Of a stretch of 64,000 bases of DNA, positions 21,989 through 40,292 are shown piece by piece. The DNA lies in NCBI GenBank assembly GCA_964501905.1, contig CAZCTW010000009.1, positions 11,342 through 75,341 of the forward strand, written 5' to 3'. Every line of letters starts with the position of its first letter. Positions within the stretch are counted from its first letter, which is position 1. The stretch comes from an uncultured Thermofilaceae archaeon (GTDB lineage: Archaea; Thermoproteota; Thermoprotei; Thermofilales; B69-G16). Both the position numbers and the translations under genes were made by a program. Below the pieces are notes generated by a model. The model did no database searches. It saw only the letters and a program-made list of their open reading frames with translations, and was not told the DNA's origin.

Positions 21989-22188
21989 CTTTCCATGAAT
22001 AAAAAGTCTCTAATTCCTTCCTCAGTTTTTCTTAATCCTAATATGGCATTACCATGAAAGTGATTGTTAAATAACCATATACGGCTTTAGCCGAGGCTTC
22101 AGCCTCCCTAACCTTAGGAACCCATTTTTCAACTGGTCAATAGTATACTTGTAGTCATACCAAGTTCTTTTCCCTCTCCCATGCCATC

Positions 22189-22512
22189 TTATATATGCGC
22201 GCGTTTTCTTTTTATGTAAAGATCTAGAGAGCTATAAGGCACTATTAAAACCGTGTAATTTAATAAAATTTCGAGACTTTGTTCTCTAGGCTTATCTATA
22301 GCCAACCTTAAAATAGTGCTATTTGTGTAAAACTGCTCTCTAACTCTAATAGGACTATTCCTCTCAATAGCTTCCGAAATCTCTAAAGCTGCTCTCCGAA
22401 GATACAGGAGCTTATAGCTAAAAATAGCCTGGAAAGGGTTAAGAGCAATAATCAAAATACCAATCATAACCACTGTTCCAGTTGCTATAAGGATCTTAGA
22501 TTGAGTCTTCAT
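22189..22512 (-). CDS. Hypothetical protein with N-terminal TM helix
   Basis: 107 aa. MKTQSKILIATGTVVMIGILIIAL... No homology recognised. Lies in the decaying region. Confidence 0.3.
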   Translation of the reverse strand: MKTQSKILIATGTVVMIGILIIALNPFQAIFSYKLLYLRRAALEISEAIERNSPIRVREQFYTNSTILRLAIDKPREQSLEILLNYTVLIVPYSSLDLYIKRKRAHI

Positions 22513-22615
22513 GAGAATAAGGAAACAAAGCTTTTAAACAGATGCAAAGTTAAAACTCACTATAATAAGTCCAGTTGTAAAATAGAACTTTAAGATATAT
22601 TTGGTGCTGTCAAGT

Positions 22616-25378
22616 TTAGTCTTCACGTTTGAGGCTTGGGTGATTGCGAGTTTCCAAACTTAAAGCTCTTAAAATAATTTTATAAATCACAATTAAAGTT
22701 GTTACTAAGATTATTGTTGCTAGTATAAATATAGTTAGTCCTGTAACATTTTTGTTAGTCTCTGGATGTTTAACTTCTATTATTATAGATGCAATTGCAG
22801 AATTTCCGGCTTTATCCATTGCTATCGCCTTAATAACGTGATGCCCAATGGATATATTTTGAAATACAAATTCTCCTGGTAATGATTCATTATAAGCCAA
22901 TTTCTCGTCTAAGTATAGTGTCACAAGTTTTAGTCCTGATAACTCGTCGACTGCTTTAATTTTTACATTAAATGTTCTCCCTACTTCGCTGTTATTTGCC
23001 GGATAAATTATTTCAAGTCTAGGCGGTCTCATATCTATTATAATAGTCGATATAGGTGTTCTCCATTCCCCAAATTTATTTTTTATTAATATATTCCATT
23101 TATGAACTCCCTCAGAAAGCTTAACGGTTTCAACGTAGAATCCCGAAGTATAGTTTCTTTTCATGGCATAGGCTTTGTTATCGACTATTAGAGTAACTTC
23201 TTCCGCAGCATCCTCTATCAAAGCTTTGAATTCAACCTTTGATCTTGAAGTACAAGTATGATTAGCGGGATATATCTCTGTAACTTCGGGATTTTTATAC
23301 ACTATTCTAACTATGTCCCAGAGGTTGAGACTAGGAACTATAAACTCCAAGTAGCCATCTTTGACCGTATAGTTAACTAATACTTTTTCTATGTTAAAGT
23401 CGGGAGAGTAAACCTCTACCTGTTTAACGCTATACTCTTCTGGAAGCTTGACTCTTATAAAAATAGAATTTTTAGGCTCAACCCAATCTGTATCAGCATT
23501 GTAGTGATAGTCGAGATTTACCAGATATATCAATATGTCTCCCGAGCTTTTCATAATCCTGGTTGTAATGACAACATTATCTGAAGCATTGGTTAAAATT
23601 CTTCTATCGTATAAGTTTTTTTACAATTCTACGCATTTTACTCAAAGCAGCGTTATTTATAACCTTGTTCTCTAAGGCATTCTCAAAGCGTAAACCAATC
23701 CAGTTATCTATTACTGTGACACCAGCGCTAGATAGTAGTTTTTGTCTAACATCTTCGTCTCTTTTGTTACCTAAATCATCGTAAAGCCCGAATTTCTTGG
23801 TAACTATAAGCCTGCCACCGCTTTCAACATAGTTTAGCAGAGCGGTGAAATCTCTGTCAGATATATGTGTAACTTCGGGAGCGATGATGAGGTTGTATTT
23901 GGCAAGCATGTCTGAGGCGTTTGTAGCTAATATTTCTCTCATCCCCAGTAAGAGGACGTCGTAGTCGATGTGCATTCTCTCTAGAGCTCTAGCCCAGCCA
24001 TAAACCTCTTTTTGATAGTCATCGCTTTTATAATAGGCAAATGATGGATAGAAGTTCCAAACAGCAGTAGGCAGAGAGATGAGTAATGCAACATCTGCGA
24101 AGCTACTGGTGTTTTCAAAGAATATTCGGTGTTTGCTTATGAACTTATAATACTTAGCTACACTTTCCCTCTCTTTTCCGAATACTAATCTCTTCGGAGA
24201 CCCTCCTCCTAAACATGTTCCCGTGCCGAATGGTACGAGCATTATAGCGCCTGAACTGTAGACTTCTGCAACTAAAGTTCTAATTAAAGTTGAGGAATTA
24301 TTTGGTGGTTGATCTGGTTCAAACGGGTTTGAATTGCATAAAATCCATTCTCCTATCCATACTTTTTAGAATAATTGCCTGAGGCTTGAGCCATTTTGCT
24401 TACAACATAGTTTGTTTGATATGGAGGAGGTTTAAATTGGTTAACTTCCACGTAAATAACGTCCATATAGGGTGTCAAAGTTATATGCGGGATCCAAGCA
24501 AAATACTCGTTACTCGTAATGGCAACTTTCCGGCCTTTGCTAGACGCATAGGCTCGAATATTTTCAGAAACATTTTTAACAAAACTCAAAGCGGATTTAT
24601 ACCAATAAATGACAGCAGCTTTAAATATTGGATCATTTAAAACCTCTTCAACGTTCTCAAATTCAACGTTCTCAGTCGGCCAGCTTGCTTTAAACTTGCC
24701 TCGTAGATTAATATAGCTACCATGAATCTCTTTAATCCTATATTTTTTAGCTAGATACTCTCTAAGACAAAAGTTTTTAAGATCGTCTACCCCCAGTTGC
24801 TTAAGATCCTCCTTGCTGAAAGTCTTATTTAAGTACTGTATTAACCCACGACCTTCCCATGTATCGCTGCATCCCCAGCCTCCTCCCCCAAAAAACACGA
24901 ATATAGCATCAGGGCTATCGATGAATATAAAATCAGCACCGGTATCAACAGCCTTTCTCCCCCATTTTATTAGGAAGTCTTCCCAATATGGGTTTTGAGG
25001 TTGCATAATTGCGTAGAAATCGCGGCGTCCTAGTTGTTCTTCGCTTAGAACACTGATAACGAGAGCTCCAGTAAAGCTTCTGGAAACTCCTACTGTATAA
25101 GGGTCGCTAAATATTGTATGTATCTCCACTCTGAGGGATAACGCATCCAGCTCCTATAATCTATCCAAGCTGGAACCGTATTATGTAACGCCTCTAAAGA
25201 ATATTCAGACTTTAAATATCCAAGAAATTGAGAAAACTCCATTTGAAATGCATCGCCGATAACTATGTATTTATCCCAATCCGGTGAAGTCTGAGGTTTT
25301 GAAGTAGTAATATGTGATAATGAAGCAATTAATATAATAAAGAATTTCTAATAGTAATATTACTGTTCTTATTTGCAT
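22616..25378 (-). pseudogene. Disrupted gene for a large C-terminally anchored surface glycosidase-like protein
   Basis: Three consecutive ORFs (258, 212, 312 aa) plus an N-terminal piece join only across frameshifts (~25.13-25.3 kb, ~24.36 kb, and the T7 run at 23616-23622). The middle part resembles a GH42-type trimerisation/GATase-like domain (LIIAPEVTHISDRDFTALLNYVESGGRLIV). The end has Ig-like repeats and a TM anchor. Confidence 0.6.
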
Positions 25379-25596
25379 GGCAAATCATTAAAAATAAATG
25401 ATAAAAATTTTTATTTAATACTTTCTGCGCCGTCAAGCTAAGCATAATTCTATGCCATAGATCCTCCATAAAATCCTAACTTGACAACACCCCTTCACAA
25501 GTAGCAAAACATATATAATCCTACAACAATTAAAAAGATAGATGTTCCGTAAATTTTCAAGAAATTCCGATACAATATATAAATATCGGAAAAATT

Positions 25597-25695: not shown

Positions 25696-27366
25696 ATGTA
25701 CACGTTGGAGAAAGTGATCAACGACCTATCCTATGATGAGGTAGTATTCTACGAATCCCCGAGAAGCGAACTAGGCGATTTAACTACTAACGCGGCTTTT
25801 AAAATAGCGAAGAAAGAAAATCTAAAACCCGAAGCCGTAGCGGAGCGTATCAAAGCGCGTATTGAAAAATCTTCCTGGGTAGCCTCAGTTCAGATCATTA
25901 GAGGATACGTTAACGTATTTCTCGACAGAGGACTTTTTACGAGAATGGTGCTAGACGAAGCTATGCATGAAAATTATGGAGCCAGAGATGTAGGGAAGGG
26001 GAAGACCATTGTTATAGATTACTCGTCACCTAACGTCGCCAGGCCAATGCATGTAGGCCACCTAAGGAGCACGGTCATAGGAGGCTCGCTCTATAGAATA
26101 TATTCATTGCTGGGGTATAAAGTAGTGGGAATAAACTACCTGGGAGATGTCGGAACCCAGTTCGGCAAGCTCATCTACGCTTATAAAAAATGGGCAAACC
26201 CCAAAGCCCTTGAAGAAAACCCCGTAAGAGAGCTGTTTAGGCTATACGTGAAATTTCACAGCGAAGCGGAGAAATCCCCTGAGTTGGAAGAAGTAGCCAA
26301 GGCAGAATATAGAAAATTGGAAGAAGGCGAGGCGGAACACGTAGAGCTCTGGAGGAAGTTCAGAGCTTTAAGCATCAAAAGCTTCAAAAAAGTCTACAAT
26401 TTGTTCGGGATAGAATTCGATGAAATTTCAGGAGAAAGCTTCTACATAGAAGAGGCTAAAAAGCTAACTAAAGAATTGCTTGAGAGGGGTATAGCAAAAA
26501 TCGGGGAAAAGGGCGAGAAGAAAAACGCCGTAGTAGCAGACTTGGAGAAGTGGGGCTTAAATCACCCCGTACTCCTTAAGAGCGACGGGACGACTTTATA
26601 TCTTTCACGAGACTTAGCGGCGCTCGTAGATAGATGTCGAAAATACAGTTTCCATGCAGCGATATACGTCGTCGGCAGAGAGCAAATACTCCACTTCAAG
26701 CAATTGTTTAAAATAGCAGAACTCATGGAACTTCCCTGTAAAAACCTGCACCATCTATCCTTCGGGCATCTCAGACTACCCGAAGGCAAAATGTCGACGA
26801 GAAAGGGAAGAGTAGTTTTCGCCGAGGAAGTTTTAGAGCGGGCAATAAGTCTTGCTAGAGAAGAGATAAAGAAACGCTGGAATGAAGACAGGCCTGAAGA
26901 TGCTCTAAAAATAGGCGTAGCCGCCGTAGCTTACGCCATACTGAAGAGCGAGCCTGAGAAGGATATCATATTTAAATGGGAGAAAATACTGTCCTTCGAG
27001 GGGGAGACGGGCCCCTACCTACAGTATTCTCTAACGAGGGCTAAGAAGATACTGGAGAAAGCTGGCGTAGAGTCTTCTAAGCTTCCTGAAAACTTCACCG
27101 TCGACAGTTATGAATGGGAGTTAGTGAAAGCTATCGCCAGATTCCCCCGCATAACGTTACAAGCTGCGGAGAAAATGCGCCCCCACCTAGTAGCTAAATA
27201 CGCTTTTTCGCTCGCCGACGCCTTCAACAAATTCTATGAAAAGTGCCCCGTACTCAGAAGTCCTCCTGAAAAGCTGGGGCTGAGACTCTCCCTGGTAAAA
27301 GCATTCTACAATACTATGAAGCAAACCCTTTATCTCCTCCTAATACCTGAGCCAGAACGAATGTGA
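25696..27366 (+). CDS. argS: Arginine--tRNA ligase
   Basis: 556 aa. HIGH-type PMHVGHLRS, KMSKS-type GKMSTRKG, C-terminal DALR-like anticodon-binding region. Confidence 0.95.
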   Translation: MYTLEKVINDLSYDEVVFYESPRSELGDLTTNAAFKIAKKENLKPEAVAERIKARIEKSSWVASVQIIRGYVNVFLDRGLFTRMVLDEAMHENYGARDVGKGKTIVIDYSSPNVARPMHVGHLRSTVIGGSLYRIYSLLGYKVVGINYLGDVGTQFGKLIYAYKKWANPKALEENPVRELFRLYVKFHSEAEKSPELEEVAKAEYRKLEEGEAEHVELWRKFRALSIKSFKKVYNLFGIEFDEISGESFYIEEAKKLTKELLERGIAKIGEKGEKKNAVVADLEKWGLNHPVLLKSDGTTLYLSRDLAALVDRCRKYSFHAAIYVVGREQILHFKQLFKIAELMELPCKNLHHLSFGHLRLPEGKMSTRKGRVVFAEEVLERAISLAREEIKKRWNEDRPEDALKIGVAAVAYAILKSEPEKDIIFKWEKILSFEGETGPYLQYSLTRAKKILEKAGVESSKLPENFTVDSYEWELVKAIARFPRITLQAAEKMRPHLVAKYAFSLADAFNKFYEKCPVLRSPPEKLGLRLSLVKAFYNTMKQTLYLLLIPEPERM

Positions 27367-27373
27367 TGAAATC

Positions 27374-27964
27374 ATGCTAGTACTAGGCGTTGACCTCGCA
27401 GGGAGCGAGAAAAGAAACACTGGAATATGCATAATGGATGAAAAGCTGAACGTTTTAACGTTCATAGTACACACCGATGAGGAGATATTAGAAGTAATCA
27501 AAAGAGTAAAGCCTCGAATTGTAGCAATAGACGCCCCCCTTACCTTGCCCCACGGCAGGAAAAGCCTAAACCGAAGAGAAAGCATCCATCTAAGAGAGTG
27601 TGATAGAAAACTGCTAGAAATGGGCATAAAATTCTTTCCAATCACCTTAGGACCCATGCGAAAATTAACAGAAAGAGGAATAAAATTAAAAAAGAAAATA
27701 GAAAACATGGGCTATAAAGTGATAGAAGTATATCCAGGCGGAGCACAAGATCTCCTAGGCATTCCTAGGAAATCTAAAGGAGTAAAAGCCTTGAGAGATG
27801 GCTTGGTAAAACTAGGGATTAAAGGAATTGAGGAGAACGCGACCGCAGACGAACTAGACGCCGTAACCGCCGCTTATGTGGCCCTCCTCCACCTAAGAGG
27901 GAAGACCATAGAACTATCGGGAATAGACGGGACAATTGTAATGCCTAACCCCGCTCAGGCATAG
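27374..27964 (+). CDS. DUF429/COG2410-like predicted RNase H-fold nuclease
   Basis: 196 aa. MLVLGVDLAGSEKRNTGICIM...IVAIDAPLTLPHG...ELDAVTAA. Family call from memory. Confidence 0.5.
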   Translation: MLVLGVDLAGSEKRNTGICIMDEKLNVLTFIVHTDEEILEVIKRVKPRIVAIDAPLTLPHGRKSLNRRESIHLRECDRKLLEMGIKFFPITLGPMRKLTERGIKLKKKIENMGYKVIEVYPGGAQDLLGIPRKSKGVKALRDGLVKLGIKGIEENATADELDAVTAAYVALLHLRGKTIELSGIDGTIVMPNPAQA

Positions 27965-28000
27965 ACAATACTTATAAAATATTCATACACGTTTTACTAA

Positions 28001-29020
28001 TTGGTGGTATTCTTGTCCAAAATAGGAATAGGCGTAGTTGGTTTAGGCAGAATAGGACAACTACACGCTGAAATCTTCCACTCTAGAATACCAAATGCAA
28101 AACTAGTAGCCGTCTCTGACGTAGTGGAAAACCTAGCAAAAAGCATCGGTGCACAGCTAGGAGTAAAATACTATACCGATTACCAACAAATGCTCAAAGA
28201 TCCAGAAATAGACGCCGTAGTAATATGCACTCCCACATTCCTCCACAAAGAAATGATAATACTAGCCGCCGAACACGGCAAACACATACTCTGCGAAAAA
28301 CCCATAACCGTAACGGTGAAAGAAGCCGAAGAAGCATTATCTAAAGTAGCCAAGAGCGGAGTAACCCTACAAATAGGATACATGAGAAGATTCGACTACG
28401 CATACCAACAAGCCAAAGAAAAAATCAAAAAAGGAGAAATAGGAAAACCCATAACCTACATAGCCATAGCCAGAGACCCCGCACCCCCACCCGGATGGGC
28501 CGCAGATCCTAAGCTCAGCGGAGGAATATTCTTGGACATGCTCAGCCACGACTTCGACATGGCCAGATGGCTACTAGAAGCCGAAGTAGAAAGAGTACAC
28601 GTAGAAGGAGGGGCAATGATATACGAAGAAATAAAGGAAAAAGGAGATCTAGATGTAGTAACAATAAACATAAAATTCACCAACGGCGCAATAGGCCACA
28701 TACACGGAAGCAGAAAATCCGCCTTCGGATACGACCTAAGGACCGAAGTGTTAGGTACCGAAGGAACAGTATACGTAGGCTACAGACAGGACCCAATGTT
28801 CGCCATAGGAACCAAACAAGGACTAGTATACTGGGGCATAAAATGGTTCTTCAAAAGATTCTACGACGCCTACGTAGAAGAAGATAAACACTTCATACAA
28901 TGCCTACTAGAAGAGAAAACACCGTTGATAACTGGAGAAGACGGCAAAAAAGCAGTACAAATCGCAGAAGCAGCCTGGAAATCCTACAAAGAACAAAAAC
29001 CAATTCAAATAACCTATTAA
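28001..29020 (+). CDS. Gfo/Idh/MocA-family NAD(P)-dependent oxidoreductase
   Basis: 339 aa. Rossmann IGIGVVGLGRIGQLHAE, catalytic-region EKP. Coding strand is unusually T-poor. Confidence 0.85.
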   Translation: MVVFLSKIGIGVVGLGRIGQLHAEIFHSRIPNAKLVAVSDVVENLAKSIGAQLGVKYYTDYQQMLKDPEIDAVVICTPTFLHKEMIILAAEHGKHILCEKPITVTVKEAEEALSKVAKSGVTLQIGYMRRFDYAYQQAKEKIKKGEIGKPITYIAIARDPAPPPGWAADPKLSGGIFLDMLSHDFDMARWLLEAEVERVHVEGGAMIYEEIKEKGDLDVVTINIKFTNGAIGHIHGSRKSAFGYDLRTEVLGTEGTVYVGYRQDPMFAIGTKQGLVYWGIKWFFKRFYDAYVEEDKHFIQCLLEEKTPLITGEDGKKAVQIAEAAWKSYKEQKPIQITY

Positions 29021-29132
29021 CCATTTTTATTAAACCCGTATAACTAGCAACAAACACTTACTAGCCTATTGACTTATTTCTAGCCACCAACCATAAGCAC
29101 TGTTCACAACCTACGAGTCCACAACGTCAAAA

Positions 29133-29531
29133 TCAACGCCGAGCAAAAGGAGCGCGGTCCTCCCTACTAAAAACAACATACCTAAATCCCCTCTTATTCT
29201 CAAACCTAACGTCAAAATACCTCACCAACTCCTCCTTCACTCTCCTATAAAAATACCGATTAGCTATATAAGAGGGAGGCTCCACCCTCGAAACAAGCCC
29301 TCTAACTCTCCTAAAATCCAACGTACCAAAAACATAAGCAGCATAACCATACTTCACCAAACTCCTAACCTTAACCGACACCCTACGAGACCTAGCACCA
29401 GCAACAATACACTCCGCCACCCTCAACACACAACCCAAAACACTACCCTGAACTCTCCCAACCCAACCCGACACCATACCAGCCATACCCCACAACCACA
29501 CCATATAAAACAAACACACCCCCCATCCCAT
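29133..29531 (-). CDS. Doubtful ORF (only the C-terminal ~80 aa look protein-like)
   Basis: 132 aa. The N-terminal half is G/W/V-rich, as expected from reading the G/T-rich strand of a skewed region. No motif recognised. Confidence 0.2.
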   Translation of the reverse strand: MGWGVCLFYMVWLWGMAGMVSGWVGRVQGSVLGCVLRVAECIVAGARSRRVSVKVRSLVKYGYAAYVFGTLDFRRVRGLVSRVEPPSYIANRYFYRRVKEELVRYFDVRFENKRGFRYVVFSREDRAPFARR

Positions 29532-29814
29532 ATCACCAAACTATTACAATCAAAAAACCCACGTACATACACAAACGCCAACACACCTCCACAACCTCAA
29601 CCAAACAAAACCCATGAACCAAAATACCAAAGAAACGAATATCCAACAACAAACCCTAAAACACACTACGACAAACACCTAACAAGACAAAAAACCACAT
29701 AACACCCCCAACAACAAACACTTACAAAAAAACCAAACGGAAAACTTAAAAACATAACCATATAATATAACACAGATGCAGACCCAGGGTTACGGCCCGG
29801 GGTCCAAGCCCCAA

Positions 29815-29939
29815 AGCGGGGTGGGGAAGCCAGGTAATCCCGCGGGGCTCATAAACCTCTGTCGGACAAAAACGAAAAAAGAGCCCCGACAGAGAATTGA
29901 GAGACCCCGAGGTCCCCGGTTCAAATCCGGGCCCCGCTA
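29815..29939 (+). tRNA. Initiator tRNA-Met(CAT) with a ~50-nt anticodon-loop intron
   Basis: A1:U72 acceptor AGCGGGG/CCCCGCT, anticodon stem CGGGG/CCCCG with three G:C pairs, loop CTCATA|intron|A. The intron holds a 9-bp hairpin CTCTGTCGG/CCGACAGAG, and TGAG pairs with the anticodon region. T-arm CCCGG-TTCAAAT-CCGGG. T-rich run follows. Confidence 0.9.
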
Positions 29940-30074
29940 TAGCCACTATTTTTTTTCTTTTCTTTCGAAAAGGAAACGAAATTTTTCTTTAATTATCGGT
30001 AATGGGACTCTAAGAGTTTTTCAAAAGTTTATCGGGAGTCACCGCGGGATTTTAGGTAGGTGGGGGTGGTTTGT

Positions 30075-31094
30075 TTATTGTTTGGTCCATCGTCCGTTTA
30101 TTTTTTTGTATAGTTTTTTCCATTTTTCTGCTGCTGTTTTTGTGTCGTATTTTTGTAGTAGGGTTAGTGCGTCTTGGAGTTTTTGTTGTTTGCGTTTTAT
30201 TTCGAATCCTATTTGTTGGGTGTATTTTTTGATGTCGTTTTTTCGGTAGATTACTAGTTGGTATGTTTCTTTGACTTTTACTTTCATGTTTTTTATTATG
30301 ATTTCTTCGTTTTCTTTTCGTACTTTTCTCCAGTGGCAGTGTATGTTTTTTAGTTTCAATAAGTATTCTACGAATTTTAGGAATTCTATGGAGGAATTGC
30401 CTATAGTTATTGCAATGTAAAGTTTGCCTTTGCTCGGAGAAACGCACGGCCCTCCGTCTCCGTCGAATGCTCCTTTTAGGAATTCGTTGGGGTATATGTA
30501 TGCTATGATTTTCCAGAGGTTTATTTTGCAGATGTAGCGTATTGTTGTTCCGTTGTGGTAGACTACGTATCTTCCGTCTTTTGTTTTGGATATTTGGTAT
30601 TTTTTGCCTGTTATTTTTGATAGTTTTTGTGCGTATTTTTCTGCGTAGTCTCGGTCTTTTACTCTTAGTTTTGCTGTGGTGCTTCGGCAGGCGTCTGTGA
30701 GTGCTGTTCCTATTATGTAGCCTAGTTCTGGGGCTGTTTTTAGTGGTGTTGTTCCTGGTTTTGTTTTGCCGGTGATCCACCAGTATATGGTCATTGGTGG
30801 TATTTTGATGCCTAGTTTTTCTTGGAGTTTTTTGGCTATTTTTCTGCGTCCTAGTTTTTTCATGGTTAGGGCTAGTTTGTAGGCTTTGTTGTATAGTAGG
30901 GCTTTTTGTAGTGGTGTGGGTTTGTATGGTATTAGTTCGTTATGATAGATTTTCTCGATTTGGTCTTTGGGGATTTTAGAGCGGTAGATTTTTTGAATTA
31001 TTTTCACCGCGTCTTCTATTTTGTAGCCTGCGGTTTTGAGGAGGAGTACCGCGTCGAAGATTTCAATAGGAATTTTCCTACTCTCCATACTCAT
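30075..31094 (-). CDS. LAGLIDADG-type (double-motif) endonuclease-like protein with N-terminal HTH region
   Basis: 339 aa. Motif 1 LGYIIGTALTDA, motif 2 FLKGAFDGDGG. N-terminal GRRKIAKKLQEKLGIKIPPMTIYWW is HTH-like. Confidence 0.7.
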   Translation of the reverse strand: MSMESRKIPIEIFDAVLLLKTAGYKIEDAVKIIQKIYRSKIPKDQIEKIYHNELIPYKPTPLQKALLYNKAYKLALTMKKLGRRKIAKKLQEKLGIKIPPMTIYWWITGKTKPGTTPLKTAPELGYIIGTALTDACRSTTAKLRVKDRDYAEKYAQKLSKITGKKYQISKTKDGRYVVYHNGTTIRYICKINLWKIIAYIYPNEFLKGAFDGDGGPCVSPSKGKLYIAITIGNSSIEFLKFVEYLLKLKNIHCHWRKVRKENEEIIIKNMKVKVKETYQLVIYRKNDIKKYTQQIGFEIKRKQQKLQDALTLLQKYDTKTAAEKWKKLYKKINGRWTKQ

Positions 31095-31099
31095 CCCCC

Positions 31100-31460
31100 C
31101 TCGCTCTCCGTCTAACAGAGTAGCGGGGTCGTATGGAGAGTCGCTGCTAATCTCTGACGATTTTCAGCCTCCTCGTGTCATCAGAGGCTCGCTGTGGCAG
31201 GGCTCCGCGCCCGCTGGTATGCCGGCCTCCCCTCCGGAGCCCTTCGCGGAGGAGAGGTAGGGGCCGGGCTTTTTGCCCGCTTAAGGCATGGCCTACAAGC
31301 GGGCGTCCGCAAGGCATAGCCTACGCGGACCTGAACCCCCAACCCTTCTCCCTCAACATCGTGGAGGGTTGGGGGTAAAAAAGAGCCCGGCTTTCCCCTC
31401 TGTGATGCGGTGACCCCCTCATTGGCTCGGGGATCCTGCCCAAACCCCAAGGTTTGGGCA
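31100..31460. other. GC-rich, hairpin-dense non-coding block (candidate structured RNA or replication/packaging origin)
   Basis: No credible ORF, only skew-generated shadows. Contains a 10-bp stem CCCCCAACCC/GGGTTGGGGG (31336-75), twin hairpins at 31275-31330, stem GGGCTCCG/CGGAGCCC (31200-41), and a 9-bp hairpin GCCCAAACC-CCAA-GGTTTGGGC (31438-59) 3 nt past the ATPase stop. Confidence 0.4.
31275..31330. repeat. Two abutting hairpins with different stems but near-identical 14-nt loops AAGGCAT(G/A)GCCTAC
   Basis: GCCCGCTT-AAGGCATGGCCTAC-AAGCGGGC followed directly by GTCCGC-AAGGCATAGCCTAC-GCGGAC. Each loop can itself form AGGC/GCCT. Confidence 0.7.
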
Positions 31461-31461
31461 T

Positions 31462-33279
31462 TCATTGGTATATTTGGAGGAGTATGTGCGCTTTTTCTGT
31501 GAGTTTTCCTTTTTCGTTTATGTATCCGTGTTTTCTGAGGGTTTTTCTCTCTTGGAGGGTTGTTTGTCCTTTCTGGTATTTTCTGATTAGGTGTGCTATT
31601 TTCTCCCACTTGTCTACGCGTCTGTGTTTTCTCTGGGGCGGCGTCGGGGTGTATCTGGGTTTTACCTTTATGTGGGCTATTCTCCCTCTCTGGGATGTTA
31701 TGCATTCTCCTGTTTCGAGTTTTTCGATTTTCGCTGTTAGTTCTCTATGTCTGCTGGGGGATAGGGCTTTGGCGGCTATTTCCGCGTCTACTCCGGTGCA
31801 GTGGAAGACCGCTATTGTCTCGGCGTTGTTTATGATTGAGCTGTGGAGGGTGCTGGGGGTTTGGGTTGCGGCTATTATCTTTACTCCGTGCTTCCTCCCC
31901 TCGTCCATTAAACGCTCTAGGAAGGTTTTCGTTTTGAGGAATCTGGGAGCCAGCCTCTGCGCCTCGTCTAGGACCAGCACGGTTTCCATGCTTGGAGGAT
32001 CGTAGTACAGGTTTTGGAGGAGGAACCAGGTGAAGACTGTTTTCTCGTAGTCGGTTTTTAGGCTGGATAGGTCGATTGCATATATTCCCTTGTCCTCGGG
32101 CGGGGGTAGGTTTCTGTTGAAGCACCTACCCGTAAGCCTGGAGAGCCTCCTCTTGACGGCTGCGGCGGCGTTTCTCTCGTCTTCCCTCCTAATATCCATC
32201 GAGGACAGCGCTTCGTACAGGGTTAGGGGGGTTACGGGCAGTCCTAGCTTTTCCACTTGGAGGGCGGCTTTTCTAGCTACTTCATACTGGATTGGGCTGA
32301 ACTCGCTCCTCTGGGTGGTGTAGAAGAGTATCTCCTCTATGCTATCCCATCCGTGGTCGAAGCCTAGCCAGAAGGGGTTTACGTAAACGTCTACGCCGGG
32401 GATTAGCCTATAGCCTAGACCCGCGTATTCCCCGTATCAGTCCAAGATCAGCACTCTCTTCTCTCTGCCCAGCCCCTCCACCAGCCTGGCTATAAACGTG
32501 CTCTTGCCCGAGCCGCTCGCGCCAATCACTAACACGTGGGTCTCCACTTCTATACCGGTGATCCCATTCCTGGTGCAGCCTATTTCAACTCCTTTATCCT
32601 CGTGGTAGGTGGAGCCTCTGACCATAGCGCTGGCCGTCTCCCACACGTACTCGCAGGCCTTTAGCTTCGTCAACTCTTTCGCCCGCCTGCCCCCTAGGGG
32701 GTAGAGCCCGGTCTTTAACAAAACCTTCTTCCCCGTCTTCATCCCCTCTATTACGAGCACGGCGGCTCCCGGGTTTCCATAGGTTTTAATCCTAGAGCCC
32801 ACCTTCAGTTTAGGCAGCTCGGCTAGAGGCTTGAGCTTAAAGCCCATCTGCTCTAGCGCCCAGCGAGGGCTGTAGCCGTCATCTAGGATGAGGTAATGTT
32901 TCTCGAAGGCTATTAGACACCTGTTATCCAGGGTCCTTACGAAGTATAGCCTACACTTCTCGGGCACGTTAAGCTTTAACTCGAAATCCCCGGGAACCCC
33001 CGTTACGGCGTAGATTTCCAGCCGGCATCCCCACAGTCCGTGTGCTCCTCTAAAATACTCCCCGTTCCACCTGTAGCTCAGGTATAAGAGTTTGAGGATC
33101 TTGGGGACTAGGATTGACGAGAGTATGGAGATGATGACTGGCAGGAAGCTAAATCTTATCCACGGCAGGGCTATTATCGAGCCTATGTAGATTATCCAGG
33201 GCGGCATCCTGGTTTTTAAGCCGTTGAGTATTTGCGTTGTTATCTCCTTCAAAGCCTCGAGGGGCATATCCTCAGCCAT
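31462..33279 (-). pseudogene. Membrane-anchored HerA/VirB4-like (DUF87-type) ATPase interrupted by one in-frame TGA
   Basis: ORFs 32437-33279 and 31462-32256 are in the same frame, and 32257-32436 is open. The single stop at 32437-32439 sits in VLILD*YGEY (hhhhDxxGEY motif). Two N-terminal TM helices, Walker A GASGSGKST, Walker B VLVLDEAQ. Confidence 0.75.
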
Positions 33280-33281
33280 GT

Positions 33282-33350
33282 TAGATTTTATCTAAAATAT
33301 TAGAATTTTAATATTTAATATTAACGCTATGTGATCTAAATTTTTTAGAT
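33282..33350. promoter_or_regulatory. AT-only divergent control region with three palindromes
   Basis: TAGAT-TTT-ATCTA (33282-94), TTAATATT-T-AATATTAA (33308-24), ATCTAAA-TTT-TTTAGAT (33334-50). Lies between divergent starts at 33279 (ATPase) and 33381 (wHTH). Confidence 0.5.
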
Positions 33351-33380
33351 TTAAACATAAAATTTATTACTGTTTTCGGC

Positions 33381-33701
33381 GTGTCTGTTATTGTGAAGAC
33401 TTCGGATATAGTTGACGTAGTGGAGAAGATAGGGGATTTGGGGGGTAGGGTGTTTCCCTCCAGTATATCAACGAATACCAAGTATGCTATGGAGAAGATC
33501 GCGAAGTTGGAGGAGCTGGGGCTGGTGAGGAGGGTTAGGGTGGGGAAAAGGAGGGTTTACGAGTTGACCGAGAAGGGGTTGAGGGTTTACGGTTTGATTA
33601 GGGAGATACGCGGGATTGTACGGGGGGAGGGGCCGCCTAGAGGGGAGGAACCCGTTTTTATAAGGAGTAACCCGTGGCTTAAAGCTCTGGGGGAGGGTTA
33701 G
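33381..33701 (+). CDS. Winged-helix transcription regulator
   Basis: 106 aa, GTG start. KIAKLEELGLVRRVRVGKRRVYELTEKG is a wHTH recognition helix plus wing. Confidence 0.65.
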   Translation: MSVIVKTSDIVDVVEKIGDLGGRVFPSSISTNTKYAMEKIAKLEELGLVRRVRVGKRRVYELTEKGLRVYGLIREIRGIVRGEGPPRGEEPVFIRSNPWLKALGEG

Positions 33702-33702
33702 G

Positions 33703-34293
33703 TTGAGGTTGAAGTACGTTAAAATAGGCAGATACGAGTTCAGCAACGTCCACTTATCGTTAATGTACCCGAGCGAGGCGGCTCGGGTTTTCGGTGTTGG
33801 GAAAGACGAGGCTTTGGGGATTATCGAAGACGCTAGGAAGAGCCTCGCTGGTTGGATGCCGGAACCCCTCCCCGTCAAGATAGGCTTAATCGATTATTAT
33901 CTGCCCCCGGGGGTCCACTTGATAGTCGACAGGTATGGTTTATTAAAGGAGTCTATCAGCCCAGCCCCCCTTATAGTGCCCGATTATCTGGACGGGGAGT
34001 TCGTGAAGTACGTGTTTTTCGAGTTGCCGAAGCTCCTAGAGCGAGAGAGGCGCTGCGTGTTTATAGAGGATTTGGACGACCGCTTCACTAGGAGCGTAAG
34101 GCAGGGGTTGCTATATATCACCGATCTTTTAAAGAGGATTTCCGCCGCCTATAACGTTCAAGTGGTGGCGTCCGGCTCGTCCGTGCTCGAAGAGGTTTTT
34201 GAAGGTTGGACTAACGTCTTCACGGTTTACAGGAGAGGCGGGGGGATATACGTTCTAGTAAAGCCCGAAAACATAGTCCGTAAGATCGCGTGA
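33703..34293 (+). CDS. Hypothetical protein, possibly a degenerate RecA/KaiC-fold protein lacking Walker A
   Basis: 196 aa, TTG start, 1-nt gaps to both neighbours. GLIDYYLPPGVHLIVDRYG resembles the pre-P-loop segment of RadB/KaiC but without GxxGxGKT. CVFIEDLDD is Walker-B-like. Confidence 0.35.
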   Translation: MRLKYVKIGRYEFSNVHLSLMYPSEAARVFGVGKDEALGIIEDARKSLAGWMPEPLPVKIGLIDYYLPPGVHLIVDRYGLLKESISPAPLIVPDYLDGEFVKYVFFELPKLLERERRCVFIEDLDDRFTRSVRQGLLYITDLLKRISAAYNVQVVASGSSVLEEVFEGWTNVFTVYRRGGGIYVLVKPENIVRKIA

Positions 34294-34294
34294 G

Positions 34295-35257
34295 GTGGAA
34301 GGCTTGGATACTCCTATCGACGAGCTCCTTAAAGTGCCTGGGATTAGCAGGGTTTTAGTGGGGAAGTTGAAGAGTATTGGGCTGGAATACCTAGAGGACC
34401 TCGTCTTGTTCAATCCCGAGGAGCTGGTTGAAAGGGCTGAAATAGCGGATCTCCGTAAAGCCGAGTTCTTGATAAAATCGGCTAGGAAGATTTTAGGGAG
34501 GAAGAGGAGGAGCTTAACCGCTAGGGAATACCTTAGGTTGATGGAGTCCAGGGAGTTCTTCACGACGCTCGTAAAGGCTATAGACGGGCTTTTAGGCGGA
34601 GGCATTAGAGTTATTGACGTCTACGAGTTCGCCGGAGAGTTCGGAACGGGTAAAACCCAGCTGGCCCACCAGTTGAGCGTTACCGTTCAACTGCCGCCGA
34701 GCAGGGGAGGTCTTGGGGGTAAGACGGTCTATATCGATACCGAGGGGACCTTCAGCCCGGAGAGGATATATGATATAGCCGAGGGGCTCGGGTTAAGCGA
34801 TGCTTTAGACAACGTTTTCGTTGCGCGTCCCGTCAACGTGCTCGAGCTCGAAGACGTGGTTATAGAGGATCTGCCTTCTCTCATACGCAGAGGGGTTAGA
34901 CTCATAGTTATCGACAGCATTATAGCTCTATACAGGGCGGAGTTTAAGGGTTTGGAAATGCTGGCTTATCGCCAGCAGAGGATTAACTATCTCATAGATT
35001 GGTTGAAGAGGTATAGCTATAGGTACCAGTTGGCCGTCGTGTACACTAACCAAGTGTTAAGCCAGCCCGTGCCTTGGGGTTTTGCCTATAAAGTGCCAGC
35101 CGGAGGGAATATTATAGCGCACGCCGCTACCCACCGTTTTCTCTTGAAAAAGACTGGCTCCGAGTGGGTTATGGAGTGTTTAGATAGTCCTACGATTCCA
35201 AGAGGAAAAGCGGCGAGGTTCAGAATCACAAAGCATGGATTGAGGGATGTCGAGTAA
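34295..35257 (+). CDS. radA: RadA/Rad51-family recombinase (full architecture)
   Basis: 320 aa, GTG start. N-terminal HhH region (LLKVPGISRVLVGKLKSIGLEYLEDL), Walker A GEFGTGKTQ, TVYIDTEGTF, Walker B LIVIDSI, TNQV, GGNIIAHAATHR. Confidence 0.88.
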   Translation: MEGLDTPIDELLKVPGISRVLVGKLKSIGLEYLEDLVLFNPEELVERAEIADLRKAEFLIKSARKILGRKRRSLTAREYLRLMESREFFTTLVKAIDGLLGGGIRVIDVYEFAGEFGTGKTQLAHQLSVTVQLPPSRGGLGGKTVYIDTEGTFSPERIYDIAEGLGLSDALDNVFVARPVNVLELEDVVIEDLPSLIRRGVRLIVIDSIIALYRAEFKGLEMLAYRQQRINYLIDWLKRYSYRYQLAVVYTNQVLSQPVPWGFAYKVPAGGNIIAHAATHRFLLKKTGSEWVMECLDSPTIPRGKAARFRITKHGLRDVE

Positions 35258-35411
35258 GTCGATAAAGGCTTGACAGCCAAAATAGACCAATATTTGGCTC
35301 TAGGATACCGGTTATTTCTTGAAATGTAGTCTGGGCATTAATCTTGTGTAGAATTTGTTATGATTCTGTTAAACTTAAGGTCCTAGGTAATGAAATATTT
35401 TATGAGTCTTT

Positions 35412-35831
35412 GTGGGAGGAGCCTGTGGTATGGAGGGTAAGTGGAGAAAATTGAGAAATACGGCTTTTGTAGAGGAAGATAAAGTAAAAACTTTTAACGG
35501 CGTATTCTACATAATCTCACTCGGCAAACGACAACTCCTCCACATAAACCTAGTCTTCAACTTTGATAAAATGCATCCAGGAAAATTCAAATTCTACGAA
35601 GAATTTGGTGCCATGTGCGAGGAGAGTGGAGCTTTTAGAGGTTATTATACTATGTTTGTAAGATGTAAGTCTTATTTGAGGGAGTTGTCTAGTCTCGCAA
35701 GTAGGATATACGTCTTCGGCAACCCTAGGACTTTCTCTAGGGATCCCGGTGTTTATGTTGGTTTTGGGGAGTATAGGGGTGTTGTTAGGGTTTTATTCGA
35801 CGATTTTTCAAACTATACTGTTTGTTATTGA
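35412..35831 (+). CDS. Hypothetical protein
   Basis: 139-aa ORF in the island. No confident motif. Confidence 0.3.
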   Translation: MGGACGMEGKWRKLRNTAFVEEDKVKTFNGVFYIISLGKRQLLHINLVFNFDKMHPGKFKFYEEFGAMCEESGAFRGYYTMFVRCKSYLRELSSLASRIYVFGNPRTFSRDPGVYVGFGEYRGVVRVLFDDFSNYTVCY

Positions 35832-35853
35832 AGGTGAAGGGGGGAAGAAATCC

Positions 35854-36084
35854 ATGAAAAAGCACGAGGAGGAGGTTGCGGAGTTTGTCGAGTCTGAGAA
35901 GAGAGAGCCCGGCCCTGTGCGCGGTCCATTTACCTGCTATCTTTTGGATGAGGATTGGGTTGTCGATTTTTTAAACCGGTATATTAGATATGTTAGAGAA
36001 CATATAAACCCAAATGCTGTATTAGGCGCCGATAAGCCTACTCCACAGGGAACAATCCACGTAGGATTAGCGGAGATAAAGTAG
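35854..36084 (+). CDS. Hypothetical protein
   Basis: Internal ATG of ORF 35749-36084, preceded by SD-like GAAGGTGAAGGGGGG. 76 aa, acidic N-terminus. Confidence 0.3.
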   Translation: MKKHEEEVAEFVESEKREPGPVRGPFTCYLLDEDWVVDFLNRYIRYVREHINPNAVLGADKPTPQGTIHVGLAEIK

Positions 36085-36155
36085 GGTTTTAAGAAGGGGT
36101 GTGTCGTGTAGTTTCTGGGGATGGGGTTGTGAAGTCGATTTTCTGGATTTTATGT

Positions 36156-36617
36156 TTATAATTCTCTCCACTTGCCTAGAGGGTTTTCTAGTTTGGGTGC
36201 TTGGTTTTTAAGGGTTGGGTGGAGGAAGTTTTTGTCGTTGGTGTAGGCTATGTCGATTAGATTTTTTAATGGTAGGATGCATAGGTAGTCCCAGATGTGG
36301 ATTCCGGATAGGCTACTGAGCTTTAAAGCTTTTTTGTAGTATTTTTTTAACATTTATTATCACGGTTTTCGAATTGCCGGATATTTTCTCGAGGATTTCC
36401 AATGCATTTTTGTCCATTTTTATGCCTCTGAATATAGAACGTGGAGGAGTTCGGCTAGCTGATGCGTAGTCAGATATATAGTGTGATTGATAAGCGAGTT
36501 TTCTAGCCGTGTTGTACATTAAGACGGTTTCTTCATATGCTTTTTCATTCTCGAATTTCACGCGTAGAGGTTTTTAAATGAGTAAACCCATATCTGTGTA
36601 TCAATGAAAACGTTCAT
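36156..36617 (-). pseudogene. vapC: Frameshifted PIN-domain toxin (vapC)
   Basis: MNVFIDTQIWVYSF (PIN N-terminal Asp) stops after 19 aa. It continues in other frames as ORFs 36313-36561 and 36156-36353 (..IAYTNDKNF, C-terminal PIN Asp). Confidence 0.55.
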
Positions 36618-36626
36618 CTTATTCAC

Positions 36627-36863
36627 CTATATCATCGTAATCGTACTCTTCGAAGTAGTCTTCCTGGCCGCCGCTAGCCTTAACTCTCTAAGAATCCTTA
36701 ACAAACCTAGCGTGTTTTCACCAAGTTCTCTAACCGGTCTAATTACTAGTTCTCTTCCTCTAATCTTCAGCTCTACTTCGTCTTCATCTCTAACCCCCAA
36801 AGTCTGTAATAGTTCTTTCCCCAGGTAAACCTGTCCTGTGTGGATGCGCCTTCTAACGGGCAA
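36627..36863 (-). CDS. vapB: AbrB/SpoVT-type antitoxin (vapB)
   Basis: 78 aa. GQVYLGKELLQTLGVRDEDEVELKIRGRELVIRPV is a swapped-hairpin AbrB motif. Its stop lies 9 nt before the vapC ATG. Confidence 0.65.
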   Translation of the reverse strand: MPVRRRIHTGQVYLGKELLQTLGVRDEDEVELKIRGRELVIRPVRELGENTLGLLRILRELRLAAARKTTSKSTITMI

Positions 36864-37258
36864 AGTATCACCAACTACTACTAAATATTTACCTGTCTCC
36901 CAAAGCTTCTTTGACTCAAATATAGGTTTGGAAAATAAGTTTGAAAGGTGAGAGTGAGAGGTATCTAGTATTTGTAAGTGTAGTTCGTAGGTGGAGATTT
37001 AGAGGAGGTTGCTAAAGACTCTATAAACGAGTTGAAGATATGGCTTATAAACAACGGCTATGTAAAACCCGATGGCATAATGTTGATAGATGGCTCTACC
37101 CGTAGAGGTTTAAAAGGTGCTGTGGTCTATGTGGAACTTTATAATTAGTAACTTTGTTGATTACACTGAGATGGTGGTATAGATGCCTATGGGGTTCTGG
37201 TACGTGTAGGATGGAACAAACGTGTTACTACTTTCGAGCGCGCGTGGGGGTGTGAGTT

Positions 37259-37945
37259 ATGATTTGTCGTAGGAGAGGTCTTCTGGTCGTTGCGGTTTGG
37301 TTTTGGTCTTTTCTGGGGGTTCCTGTAGTGGCTTTGTTTATCGCTTGTATTGAGGGAGTGGCGCCTACTGTCAACGGGATTATGGGTATGCTGAGTAGGG
37401 AGCCCTATCTAGCTTCGTATATTGAGTTCGCTTGTTGTGGTGGGTTGCCATTAGCCGTAACTCTGCTATGTAGGGAGGATTTCGTAATTTATGGTTTAAG
37501 GAGGGAGGGTTTGGTGAAGAGCCTGCTATTATCGTCGATACTTGCTGTGTTCAAGATTACACTTAGACTTCTGAGTGGGGGATTTAGGTTTGTTAGTTTT
37601 AACCTACCATTTCCACTTAATCTATGGTATGCCTTTTTCGGAGTTTTCGCTTATGGACCTTTAGAAGTGTTTTTCGTCGTATGGCTTATCGTCAATACAG
37701 ATCGTATATTTGGAAGTTTAGAGAGGATGGTCTCGCCGGGCCTGATAATAACAGTGCTGGTCTTCGGATTGTCTCATGTAGTATTCTCACCAGGAGGCGG
37801 ACTGGTAAACGCTATCAGTGTAACGATAACCTTCTTTATTCTAGGATTGATATATAAGTACACGGGAAACTCGATAGGGCCGATGATTGCTTGGACGTTA
37901 ATGAACGGGTTCATACCATACCTAGTAATTGGTTGTCTAACGTAA
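37259..37945 (+). CDS. CPBP/CAAX-like intramembrane protease family protein (possibly degenerate)
   Basis: 228 aa, multi-TM. FGLSHV (FxxxH) is present, but the EExxxR and HxxxN motifs are imperfect (PLEVFF; AWTLMN). Confidence 0.45.
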   Translation: MICRRRGLLVVAVWFWSFLGVPVVALFIACIEGVAPTVNGIMGMLSREPYLASYIEFACCGGLPLAVTLLCREDFVIYGLRREGLVKSLLLSSILAVFKITLRLLSGGFRFVSFNLPFPLNLWYAFFGVFAYGPLEVFFVVWLIVNTDRIFGSLERMVSPGLIITVLVFGLSHVVFSPGGGLVNAISVTITFFILGLIYKYTGNSIGPMIAWTLMNGFIPYLVIGCLT

Positions 37946-38101
37946 CATTGGAAATCTACTACTTTTATCCCAAATAAACCTCTAAAAGGAGGGATGATAG
38001 CTTTTAATAGGCGTTATAGGAATTAGATAACTGATCACCTGTTTTAAAGATAATCTTGCCTCCAAGATAGAGGGGATTGTTTACGGAGGTTGGTGGAGAT
38101 A

Positions 38102-38129
38102 GGGTAGGTTGGGGGTTAGGGCGTGGGGG
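38102..38129 (+). other. Potential G-quadruplex motif
   Basis: GGGTAGGTTGGGGGTTAGGGCGTGGGGG: four G3+ runs with loops of 7 nt or fewer, inside a G/T-rich non-coding stretch. Confidence 0.4.
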
Positions 38130-38641
38130 TGGTGGTTAAGTCTTTGAGGGATGTCTGCTGTTGTTACTTTTAGAGAGGTGTATGCGGGCGCTTATCAGTT
38201 CGGCTTTCTACTTCCCCGCCATAAAATTGATGGTTTGGGCTTTTTGTGGATTATCACTTCTTGTCTTCTGATGAGCGGTCGAGGATTTGTAAGGAACTTT
38301 TGGCTAGGTGTTTGAAGAGTTTAAAGTATAGGATTTACAGTGTTTTATGTTTTAAATCTTGATATAGGGAGTTATTCGAGGTTGCCGATAGGGTATACGG
38401 CTATGGCAACTATAAGATTTTTGAAAAATACCTTAATATTTTGAACATAGTGGGATTTGGGGAAGATCGTAGAGGGACTAAAAGGGTTTTGTATGCTGAT
38501 TTGGAAGGCGTAATTCTTCGTGATTGAGAACGAGGAAGGAGGCAGATTGAGATAATTAAAAACTTGCCTGCAAGCGAGGAGGATAAAGAGAAAATACTCT
38601 GGAAGAATATACGCCAGTTGTTGAATCTTTAATTAGAAGCG

Positions 38642-40012: not shown

Positions 40013-40108
40013 TGGGCCCGGCGGGATTCGAACCCGCGACCCCCCGGTTGTGCCCTCGGCTACGAGCCGAAATGAGCCGGGTGCTCTACCTAGCTGAGCT
40101 ACGGGCCC
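40013..40108 (-). tRNA. tRNA(CAT) (elongator Met or Ile2) with a ~22-nt anticodon-loop intron
   Basis: Acceptor GGGCCCG/CGGGCCC, D-arm GCTC-AGCTAGGTA-GAGC, anticodon stem CCCGG/CCGGG enclosing CTCAT-[TTCGGCTCGTAGCCGAGGGCAC]-AA, T-arm GCGGG-TTCGAAT-CCCGC. Exact junctions are ambiguous. Confidence 0.85.
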
Positions 40109-40292
40109 CAGATTAAGGCTGTTTTCCATAAATATAAAGTTTACTGGTTTCGCCAATATCCGCATATGTCTTACTTTTACATATAGCGGGTTACCTGTAA
40201 CGGAAAAGCGATGTCGAGAAGTAGCTGACAAACTGGTAGAGAGTGGCTGGTATTAACGCAAATAGCAAGAGAAGAAATAGATAGTTTGGATT

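Follow-up and report, generated by a model that had tools for sequence, protein, structure and literature searches.

The two strands of an archaeal chromosome exchange base composition at the gene for the initiator tRNA-Met (tRNA-iMet; 29815-29939, + strand) in a 64-kb stretch of DNA from an uncultured Thermofilaceae archaeon of hot springs (the whole of which is hereafter called the window). The + strand is A/C-rich to the left of this gene and G/T-rich to its right, and our measurements, together with a comparison with related contigs, show that the bias follows the DNA strand, depends on position, is mirror-symmetric, belongs to a single clade and is maintained over time. A switch of this kind, centred on the initiator tRNA gene, had been pointed out in an earlier note made by reading the sequence of the window, and our measurements bear it out for 27.4-32.4 kb. 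The cause that we favour, while remaining nearly evenly divided about it, is DNA synthesis that would recurrently run outward from a fixed point at the tRNA gene.

A strand bias that reverses at the initiator tRNA gene

Keto skew, (G+T-A-C)/N, was calculated on the + strand in 500-nt bins. Background bins of the window (n = 116) have a mean of +0.041, a standard deviation of 0.074 and a range of -0.14 to +0.30. The left arm reaches -0.26, -0.21, -0.45 and -0.42 in bins 28001, 28501, 29001 and 29501, and the right arm +0.39, +0.49 and +0.34 in bins 30001, 30501 and 31501, with z-scores of up to 6.6. The difference between the 2 kb to the right and the 2 kb to the left of a given position culminates at position 30000 with 0.66 and does not exceed 0.18 anywhere beyond 4 kb from the centre. 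Only the keto axis is anomalous: in the window, whose G+C content is 41%, purine skew is normal and tracks gene orientation throughout. Because identical contigs were obtained in four independent assemblies, the skew is no assembly artefact.

The bias is most extreme at third codon positions, where the + strand is 80-94% A/C between 28.1 and 29.5 kb and 80-100% G/T between 30.1 and 31.0 kb. In bins of 50 codons, third-position skew forms a left plateau of -0.60 to -0.88 over 28075-29531 and a right plateau over 30078-30975, where five of the six bins lie at +0.84 to +1.00 and the sixth at +0.60; one of these bins has G or T at each of its 50 third positions. Skews of +0.56 to +0.72 persist to ~31.9 kb and give way to ~0 beyond 32.4 kb. 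The bias has faded by ~27.3 kb on the left and by ~32.4 kb on the right, each arm being ~2.4 kb long and near saturation over its first 1-1.7 kb. Gene by gene, third-position skew on the + strand goes from -0.18 in ArgRS (25696-27366, +) to -0.39 in a DUF429 gene (27374-27964, +; Pfam match), -0.70 in a GFO/IDH/MocA oxidoreductase gene (28001-29020, +; Pfam match) and -0.82 in ORF132, a gene for a small basic protein (29133-29531, -), and, on the other side of the tRNA, from +0.79 in a LAGLIDADG gene (30075-31094, -) to +0.50 and +0.05 in the regions encoding the C-terminal (31462-32256, -) and N-terminal (32437-33279, -) halves of an ATPase. The gradient is symmetric, and the sign reverses inside the tRNA-iMet unit (29772-29939), the switch being confined to ~170-280 bp.

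G/T richness had been thought to extend to 38.2 kb in either gene orientation, and this holds only as far as 32.4 kb. Beyond that point there is a weak tail, with third-position skew at ~0 in the N-terminal half of the ATPase, +0.04 to +0.24 in most genes and +0.57 in a short winged helix-turn-helix (wHTH) gene, and this tail is partly made of ordinary G-rich sense strands. Two accompanying features mentioned in the earlier note were also observed: long low-complexity shadow open reading frames (ORFs), for example 30052-30780 (-) and 28567-28887 (+), and a G+C-richer right arm (48-55% G+C at 31-35 kb, against ~40%).

ORF132 makes it possible to distinguish a bias of the DNA from a bias of the messenger. 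Its third positions, which show a clear periodicity of three, are 91% G/T on its sense strand, whereas the sense strands of neighbouring genes are A/C-rich, and the bias is thus a property of the DNA strand, not of the mRNA. ORF132 and the adjacent non-coding spacer accordingly have the same + strand polarity as the adjoining + strand genes. In both arms, the G/T-rich strand is the one that runs 5' to 3' away from the tRNA. Four-fold degenerate sites tell which bases are concerned. On the + strand, the background frequencies of A, C, G and T at these sites are.28,.17,.21 and.33; on the left they become.52,.35,.05 and.08 in the oxidoreductase gene and.59,.34,.03 and.03 in ORF132, and on the right.05,.05,.31 and.59 in the LAGLIDADG gene. 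The pattern matches an excess of A-to-G and C-to-T changes on the outward strand or, equivalently, of T-to-C and G-to-A changes on its partner, and relative to the background the A/G ratio is shifted more than the C/T ratio. The deamination-like combination of C-to-T and A-to-G on one strand that the earlier note had proposed agrees with these frequencies. The bias also reaches the encoded proteins: residues specified by G/T-rich codons make up 45% of ORF132 (32% in an unskewed homologue), and residues specified by A/C-rich codons make up 37% of the LAGLIDADG protein (27-28% in unskewed homologues).

We compared the window with contigs of related taxa, designated taxon B (L086, L097, L088 and L098, identical where overlapping), taxon C (L085, to which L005 is close), taxon D (L102) and an outgroup (L087); the closest species representative has an ArgRS with 84% protein identity. 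The order ArgRS-DUF429-oxidoreductase is conserved in five related contigs, the outgroup included, and is followed by ORF132 in taxa B, C and D (ORF132 is conserved in L085, L088, L097 and L102). The oxidoreductase orthologues of L085 and L086 are skewed like that of the window, with third-position skews of -0.73 (taxon C) and -0.65 (taxon B); the corresponding values for ORF132 are -0.76 and -0.89, and the taxon D contig displays the same strong skew in 250-nt bins. The outgroup oxidoreductase has 79% protein identity and the same upstream synteny, but other genes lie downstream instead of ORF132 and the tRNA. Its third-position skew is -0.27, within the normal range of the window, and its four-fold sites are correspondingly less unbalanced (A.42, C.22, G.11, T.26). 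On the right of the tRNA, two different genes, LAGLIDADG in the window and a TnpB-like gene in L088, occupy the same position and are equally skewed, which indicates that the skew depends on the position and not on the gene. The bias arose in place, on resident DNA, and does not look inherited from a foreign element.

The age of the bias can be appreciated from neutral divergence. At the third positions of ArgRS, the window shares only ~50% identity with taxa B and C, a value close to saturation, and the skew is equal in all of them. Together with a spacer that has diverged by 36% and kept its skew, this indicates that the bias is maintained, since G and T would have come back if the pressure had ceased long ago.

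The tRNA unit and its neighbourhood

The initiator tRNA gene was missed by ARAGORN and by the Rfam gathering scan, and was recovered with Rfam in E-value mode (48.7 bits, E = 1.6e-8). It has an A1:U72 pair, a G-C-rich anticodon stem, a CAU anticodon and an intron of ~50 nt after the anticodon. With a conserved GC-rich leader of 43 nt (29772-29814), it forms the unit in which the bias switches (29772-29939, +), and this unit is near-identical in the window and L088, homology stopping at the 3' end of the tRNA, which is followed by an AT-rich stretch of ~110 bp. The three other tRNA genes of the window have no such footprint. One of them, at 49006-49098 (-), was, like tRNA-iMet, among the two of the four window tRNA genes missed by ARAGORN; it was caught by the Rfam gathering scan and, at 93 nt, is long for a tRNA and probably also bears an intron. 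Contigs break at the tRNA-iMet gene, and we considered, then set aside, population heterogeneity as the reason: co-occurring taxa share an identical 170-nt tRNA unit, which is alone enough to break de Bruijn assemblies.

The spacer to the left of the unit (29532-29771, +) is A/C-rich and, as stated in the earlier note, non-coding and nearly pure in these two bases, the segment 29532-29742 being 87% A/C with no ORF. Its right end is the tRNA promoter region and contains a TATA-like sequence, CTTAAAAAC, at ~29743-29751. The L088 spacer is 81% A/C and differs from that of the window by 36% plus indels, 33 of the 76 differences being A<->C transversions, the most frequent kind. Conservation across taxa is limited to the last ~100 nt, and the bulk of the spacer is poorly conserved.

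ORF132, on the other side of the spacer, has unskewed homologues elsewhere, at 62-67% identity in L099-L101 and, over part of its length, at 54% in L103. In other genomes, the neighbourhoods of its homologues contain RHH and ParE-like genes. The AF2 model (pLDDT 79.5) predicts a long N-terminal helix and then an order of elements like that of a winged helix. Foldseek returned winged-helix resemblances below threshold only, every match having E > 0.1, and searches of Pfam, NCBIfam and PHROG gave no match. Going by this modelled fold, ORF132 may be a winged-helix DNA-binding protein, of a kind suited to an initiator or barrier role, although this is a weak assignment and no homology to WhiP/Cdt1 or Orc1 was detected.

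Immediately to the right of the tRNA lies a 1.2-kb cassette (29940-31164), the only part of the central block that varies between taxa and the site of the strongest right-arm skew. In the window it carries, on the - strand, the free-standing LAGLIDADG gene (Pfam LAGLIDADG_3), whose third positions are 90% G/T on the + strand and whose homologues P0009 and P0010 are unskewed. L088 and the window cease to be homologous at the 3' end of the tRNA and become so again from window position 31165; the same slot in L088 (1376-2695) is occupied by the TnpB-like gene, for which there are matches to TnpB models and a third-position skew of +0.68. The LAGLIDADG and TnpB-like genes are unrelated; each sits in precisely this slot, bounded by the 3' end of the tRNA and the structured element described below, and is antisense to the tRNA.

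The structured element (31165-31460, strand undecided) is ~300 nt long, has a G+C content of ~60% and forms an unskewed patch within the right arm. It is ~95% identical between the window and L088, compared with ~85% for the flanking genes, and among the fetched loci occurs in these two taxa only. Its fold z-scores against shuffled sequences are -8.25 (+ strand) and -6.8 (- strand), and the substitutions between the two copies keep five pairs and break none, on either strand. No Rfam family matched, the gathering and E-value scans having returned tRNAs only. The element is probably a non-coding RNA not described before, or else a stretch of DNA acting in cis.

The right arm fades inside the gene of a Ced/HerA/FtsK-like membrane ATPase (31462-33279, -; Pfam and NCBIfam matches). 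In the window this gene is interrupted by an in-frame TGA (32437-32439) that results from a single W-to-stop change (TGG to TGA), equivalent to C-to-T on the + strand, and in L088 the N-terminal part (~4061-4900) contains several stops and frameshifts. The lesions being different, the two taxa lost the gene independently. The mutation pressure that produced the skew may help to inactivate neighbours such as this stop-bearing ATPase. The degenerate ATPase closes a block confined to the clade (29133-33279), which comprises ORF132, the spacer, tRNA-iMet with its leader, the nuclease cassette and the 300-nt element.

Farther right, wHTH, ORF196 and RadA form an operon (33381-35257, +) with third-position skews of +0.57, +0.04 and +0.14 and G+C-rich third positions. 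RadA (34295-35257) scores 266.8 bits against an NCBIfam equivalog cutoff of 259, and its nearest database relatives are only 62-63% identical, against 84% for ArgRS. They come from the Thermofilaceae metagenome-assembled genome (MAG) L107 and from Thermofilum pendens (L109), in both of which the operon is found with no skew and no tRNA nearby; its RadA neighbours there are a gene for an Rce1-like protease (L107) and an orthologue of the oxidoreductase (T. pendens). It is a conserved core operon of Thermofilaceae and lies outside any island. The ATPase pseudogene and this operon make up a block of high third-position G+C (31.5-35.3 kb, 59-70% against ~40% elsewhere), also present in L088. Beyond it, small ORFs at 36156-36863 (-) resemble, from their translations judged by eye, an AbrB/VapB-type antitoxin and a split PIN-like toxin.

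Several observations concern the wider locus. In taxon C, the skewed oxidoreductase and ORF132 are followed by unrelated, unskewed and apparently decayed sequence (L085 4380-6348) in place of the spacer and tRNA, which is either a recent rearrangement or a chimeric contig. In taxon B (L086), the tRNA-Thr gene (window 40013-40144) and the 41.5-45.3 kb region lie directly upstream of the equivalent of window position 16783, an arrangement from which it follows that a ~23-kb segment running from tRNA-Val (+) to tRNA-Thr (-) (window 16.7-40.0 kb) was inverted in one lineage. The 5.6 kb upstream of ArgRS (19952-25584; Big_7, GH42M-like and small ORFs) are missing from between the homologous flanks in L086 and L087 and rearranged in L097, and constitute a variable region. 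Beyond the one Thermofilaceae MAG at 84%, the best matches of ArgRS among species representatives are from Clostridia (38-43%) and a Parvarchaeota MAG (43%), and from these similarities the enzyme may be bacterial in type and its gene may have been acquired horizontally. We also considered a transfer of the central region from one lineage to another and rejected it, since L086, L097, L088 and L098 represent a single taxon and the neutral spacer differs greatly from taxon to taxon.

Candidate sources of the bias

The explanation that we favour, if with a little less than half of our confidence, is that short-range DNA synthesis, or the displacement of a strand, has recurrently proceeded outward from one fixed point at the tRNA-iMet gene and made this mutational footprint in place, probably under a replication-linked trigger. 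On each side of the tRNA, the outward 5' to 3' strand would long have been gaining G for A and T for C. DNA synthesis would repeatedly start at or beside the tRNA and run a few kilobases outward both ways, and the outward strand would either be displaced, and have its A and C deaminated while single-stranded at high temperature, or be remade with G.T-type misincorporations; either route would yield A-to-G and C-to-T changes. The trigger is most likely a replication-linked event occurring about once per cell cycle, and we lean toward such an event because even brief single-strandedness at 85-90 °C would be strongly mutagenic. It might be a non-canonical site of local initiation in the block formed by ORF132, the spacer, the tRNA and the structured element, or forks that fuse at the tRNA and over-run each other, two options between which the sequence cannot separate. 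Leading strands from local initiation, with the displaced strand or the lagging-strand template left single-stranded, fork over-run, nick translation or resynthesis after resection, and outward transcription are all compatible with the observed polarity.

Several points weigh against this explanation. The polarity alone cannot tell initiation, fork fusion, nick or break repair and outward transcription apart. Gene orientation cuts both ways, since the genes of each arm run toward the centre, which suits converging forks and is atypical for an origin. No match to Orc1/Cdc6 or RFC was found in the 64-kb window by tblastn with the L107 Cdc6 and RFC, and the ORFs around the centre, compared with Pfam and NCBIfam, gave no Orc/Cdc6 domain. 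A scan for the Sulfolobus-type origin recognition box (ORB) consensus at up to three mismatches gave a single distant match at chance level (1163-1179), although a lineage-specific motif may exist. The spacer has no conserved repeat architecture, the repeats around the centre being low-complexity by-products, and its mostly unconserved sequence is unlike a sequence-specific origin. Cumulative skews within the window show no chromosome-scale change of sign at the centre, and we know of no described archaeal origin or terminus with kilobase-scale skew this large. Finally, in the left core, singleton substitutions polarised with taxa B, C and D comprise 44 C-to-T and 15 T-to-C changes on the + strand, an imbalance that looks like relaxation; a two-state calculation indicates that such an asymmetry of substitutions is expected at stationarity under strong bias, and parsimony is itself biased by skewed composition. 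The local bidirectional origin placed by the earlier note at 29.8-30.0 kb is upheld as to polarity and position, the change from A/C-rich to G/T-rich that is seen across an oriC being found here, locally only, but has none of the usual hallmarks, neither an Orc1/Cdc6 gene in the 64 kb nor ORB boxes. A more specific version, possible in our opinion and still doubtful, is that the tRNA-iMet block would be an undescribed fixed replication site of Thermofilaceae, either an Orc1-independent strand-displacement initiation zone or a programmed fork-fusion site, which at ~85-90 °C would have written a saturating footprint of ~5 kb.

Transcription could instead have exposed the outward strands, which we hold to be rather unlikely. 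The divergent promoters of tRNA-iMet (rightward, + strand) and ORF132 (leftward, - strand) point outward, and the keto-rich strand is the non-template strand of both transcripts, which would be exposed and deaminated in transcription bubbles or R-loops. An excess of G+T on the non-template strand is reportedly a signature of mammalian genes, the relative rise here is larger for A-to-G than for C-to-T, and co-transcription of the 31165-31460 element with the tRNA, if it occurs, would naturally carry rightward transcription across the cassette. The archaeal RNA polymerase terminates at oligo-T, however, and on the outward strands runs of at least five T number 30 in the right arm (2.36 kb), 24 of them in the first 1.05 kb, and 15 in the left arm, against a background of ~3 per kb; a T8 comes directly after the tRNA, and the inward sense strands have one such run each. 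Transcripts should therefore end after a few hundred bases, whereas the skew plateau spans 1-1.7 kb and the skew continues for at least 2 kb past oligo-T runs. Transcription would further have to leave no trace at the other tRNA genes of the window, to start leftward back to back with the tRNA promoter, up to which the spacer is skewed, and to run heavily antisense through a conserved and evidently functional oxidoreductase gene. Recurrent breaks or nicks at the tRNA junction, due to LAGLIDADG or TnpB or to conflicts between transcription and replication, with resection and error-prone resynthesis, are in our judgement unlikely. The strands resected from their 5' ends would be the outward ones, and G.T misincorporation during their resynthesis would make them keto-rich, a polarity that would fit if errors fell mainly in the new strand; if it was the surviving 3' overhangs that were deaminated, an effect that should be strong at high temperature, the opposite polarity is predicted, and strand-coordinated mutation clusters in yeast are reported to have a polarity opposite to that of the present arms. 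Genes for two different endonucleases in the same tRNA-adjacent slot in two taxa, and sequence variation that starts exactly at the tRNA 3' end, speak for breaks, and symmetric, graded arms of ~2.4 kb could be likened to resection or co-conversion tracts. Against this, an allele that bears a cassette is normally resistant to the homing enzyme or TnpB encoded in it, so that cutting should end at fixation; classical homing copies the cassette from either side, whereas here the cassette shows the right-arm polarity uniformly; very many events per lineage would be needed to bring neutral sites to equilibrium; and contig breaks at the tRNA are more simply due to the 170-nt unit that co-occurring taxa share.

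Selection, through a preference for codons ending in A or C or through oligo-T terminators that would shield neighbouring genes from the tRNA promoter, is very unlikely to have produced the bias. Some probably highly expressed genes of the window do lean toward A/C at third positions, with sense-strand skew down to -0.39, and the outward strands are rich in terminator-like T runs; but the sense bias of ORF132 is opposite, the most skewed segment is the non-coding spacer, a homing endonuclease, TnpB and a pseudogene are as skewed as the enzyme gene, and terminators explain neither the loss of C nor the depletion of G and T on the left + strand. We give hardly any credence to the composition having been inherited from a foreign element replicating through single-stranded DNA (ssDNA), such as a rolling-circle plasmid or an ssDNA virus, integrated at the tRNA, even though a variable cassette and a degenerate Ced/HerA-like translocase gene adjoin the tRNA gene and the block from ORF132 through the tRNA and the element to the ATPase is limited to one clade. 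A genomic island of such ancestry had been suggested in the earlier note, and is contradicted by the left arm and the wHTH-ORF196-RadA operon, which are core syntenic genes in relatives, the left-arm genes having unskewed orthologues in the outgroup. A rolling-circle ancestor should have left one uniform polarity, where two mirror-image arms are seen; the same skew affects different genes in the same position; and the skew outlasts a near-saturating neutral divergence. With up to three mismatches allowed, only one copy of the 31-nt 3' part of the tRNA was found, and there are no flanking direct repeats that would form an att site. Among the scanned proteins, Pfam, NCBIfam and PHROGs gave no Rep (HUH) domain and, for the ORFs of 27.4-38 kb, no integrase domain, short or degraded fragments not having been searched exhaustively. 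Exact-pattern scans of viral contigs with the 300-nt element and the tRNA intron region gave no match, and comparisons of the element with plasmids and of the ATPase with plasmids and phages gave nothing or distant HerA-like matches only.

Significance and comparison with known systems

Strand asymmetries are the main clue to DNA copying that sequence alone provides, and in archaea they are usually weak and ambiguous. If the tRNA-iMet gene truly marks a fixed point where synthesis starts or meets, such sites could be found in uncultured hyperthermophiles without experiment on the organism, and the locus would be a natural experiment on the effects of single-strandedness or repair synthesis on DNA at high temperature. 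It also illustrates that mutation pressure acting locally can alter codon usage and even the amino-acid make-up of proteins, and it is a warning for annotation, as the pattern yields long shadow ORFs and mimics a foreign island. A search of the literature gave no description of an equivalent feature.

The asymmetry between the H and L strands of vertebrate mitochondrial DNA (mtDNA) likewise consists of C-to-T and A-to-G changes on the exposed strand, with a gradient that depends on the distance from the start of synthesis, and four-fold sites on one of its strands have roughly.4-.5 A and.35 C, with G and T low. In contrast to mtDNA, the present feature lies on a cellular chromosome, covers ~5 kb and has two opposite arms, and strand-displacement replication is here only proposed. 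The switch at bacterial oriC, and the skew jumps at human origins and bidirectional promoters, have the same sign, from A/C-rich to G/T-rich. The present amplitude is roughly an order of magnitude larger, and the feature is limited to ~±2.4 kb with no initiator gene or ORB. An extrachromosomal element is said to have been captured as a chromosomal origin, oriC3 with WhiP, in Sulfolobus and Aeropyrum, and a comparable setting may be recognized here in the clade-specific, tRNA-adjacent block, with a small and possibly winged-helix gene by a non-coding spacer and mobile-element remnants. Unlike oriC3, the present block is at most a putative origin and its ORF132 has no detected homology to WhiP/Cdt1 or Orc1, and no such skew has been reported for oriC3.

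Clusters of mutations at breaks in yeast and in cancer (kataegis) resemble the arms in being strand-specific transition clusters on the kilobase scale that switch strand at a fixed point; these clusters and those of break-induced replication are nonetheless single somatic events, mostly C-to-T on the surviving 3' overhang and of opposite polarity, whereas the present bias is an equilibrium reached in several species. Transcription-associated mutagenesis in the flanks of tRNA genes, which is also centred on a highly transcribed tRNA gene, reportedly concerns tens of bases and has no mirror-image asymmetry, in contrast to the kilobase-scale mirror-image asymmetry seen here, of which the other tRNA genes of the window show nothing similar. 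Mutational strand asymmetry as such is known, but a cellular chromosome, mirror arms of ~2.4 kb, near-saturation at synonymous sites and conservation across species are found together in none of these systems. The closest analogues are vertebrate mtDNA in chemistry and gradient, bacterial oriC and the human jumps in sign, and Sulfolobales oriC3 in setting.

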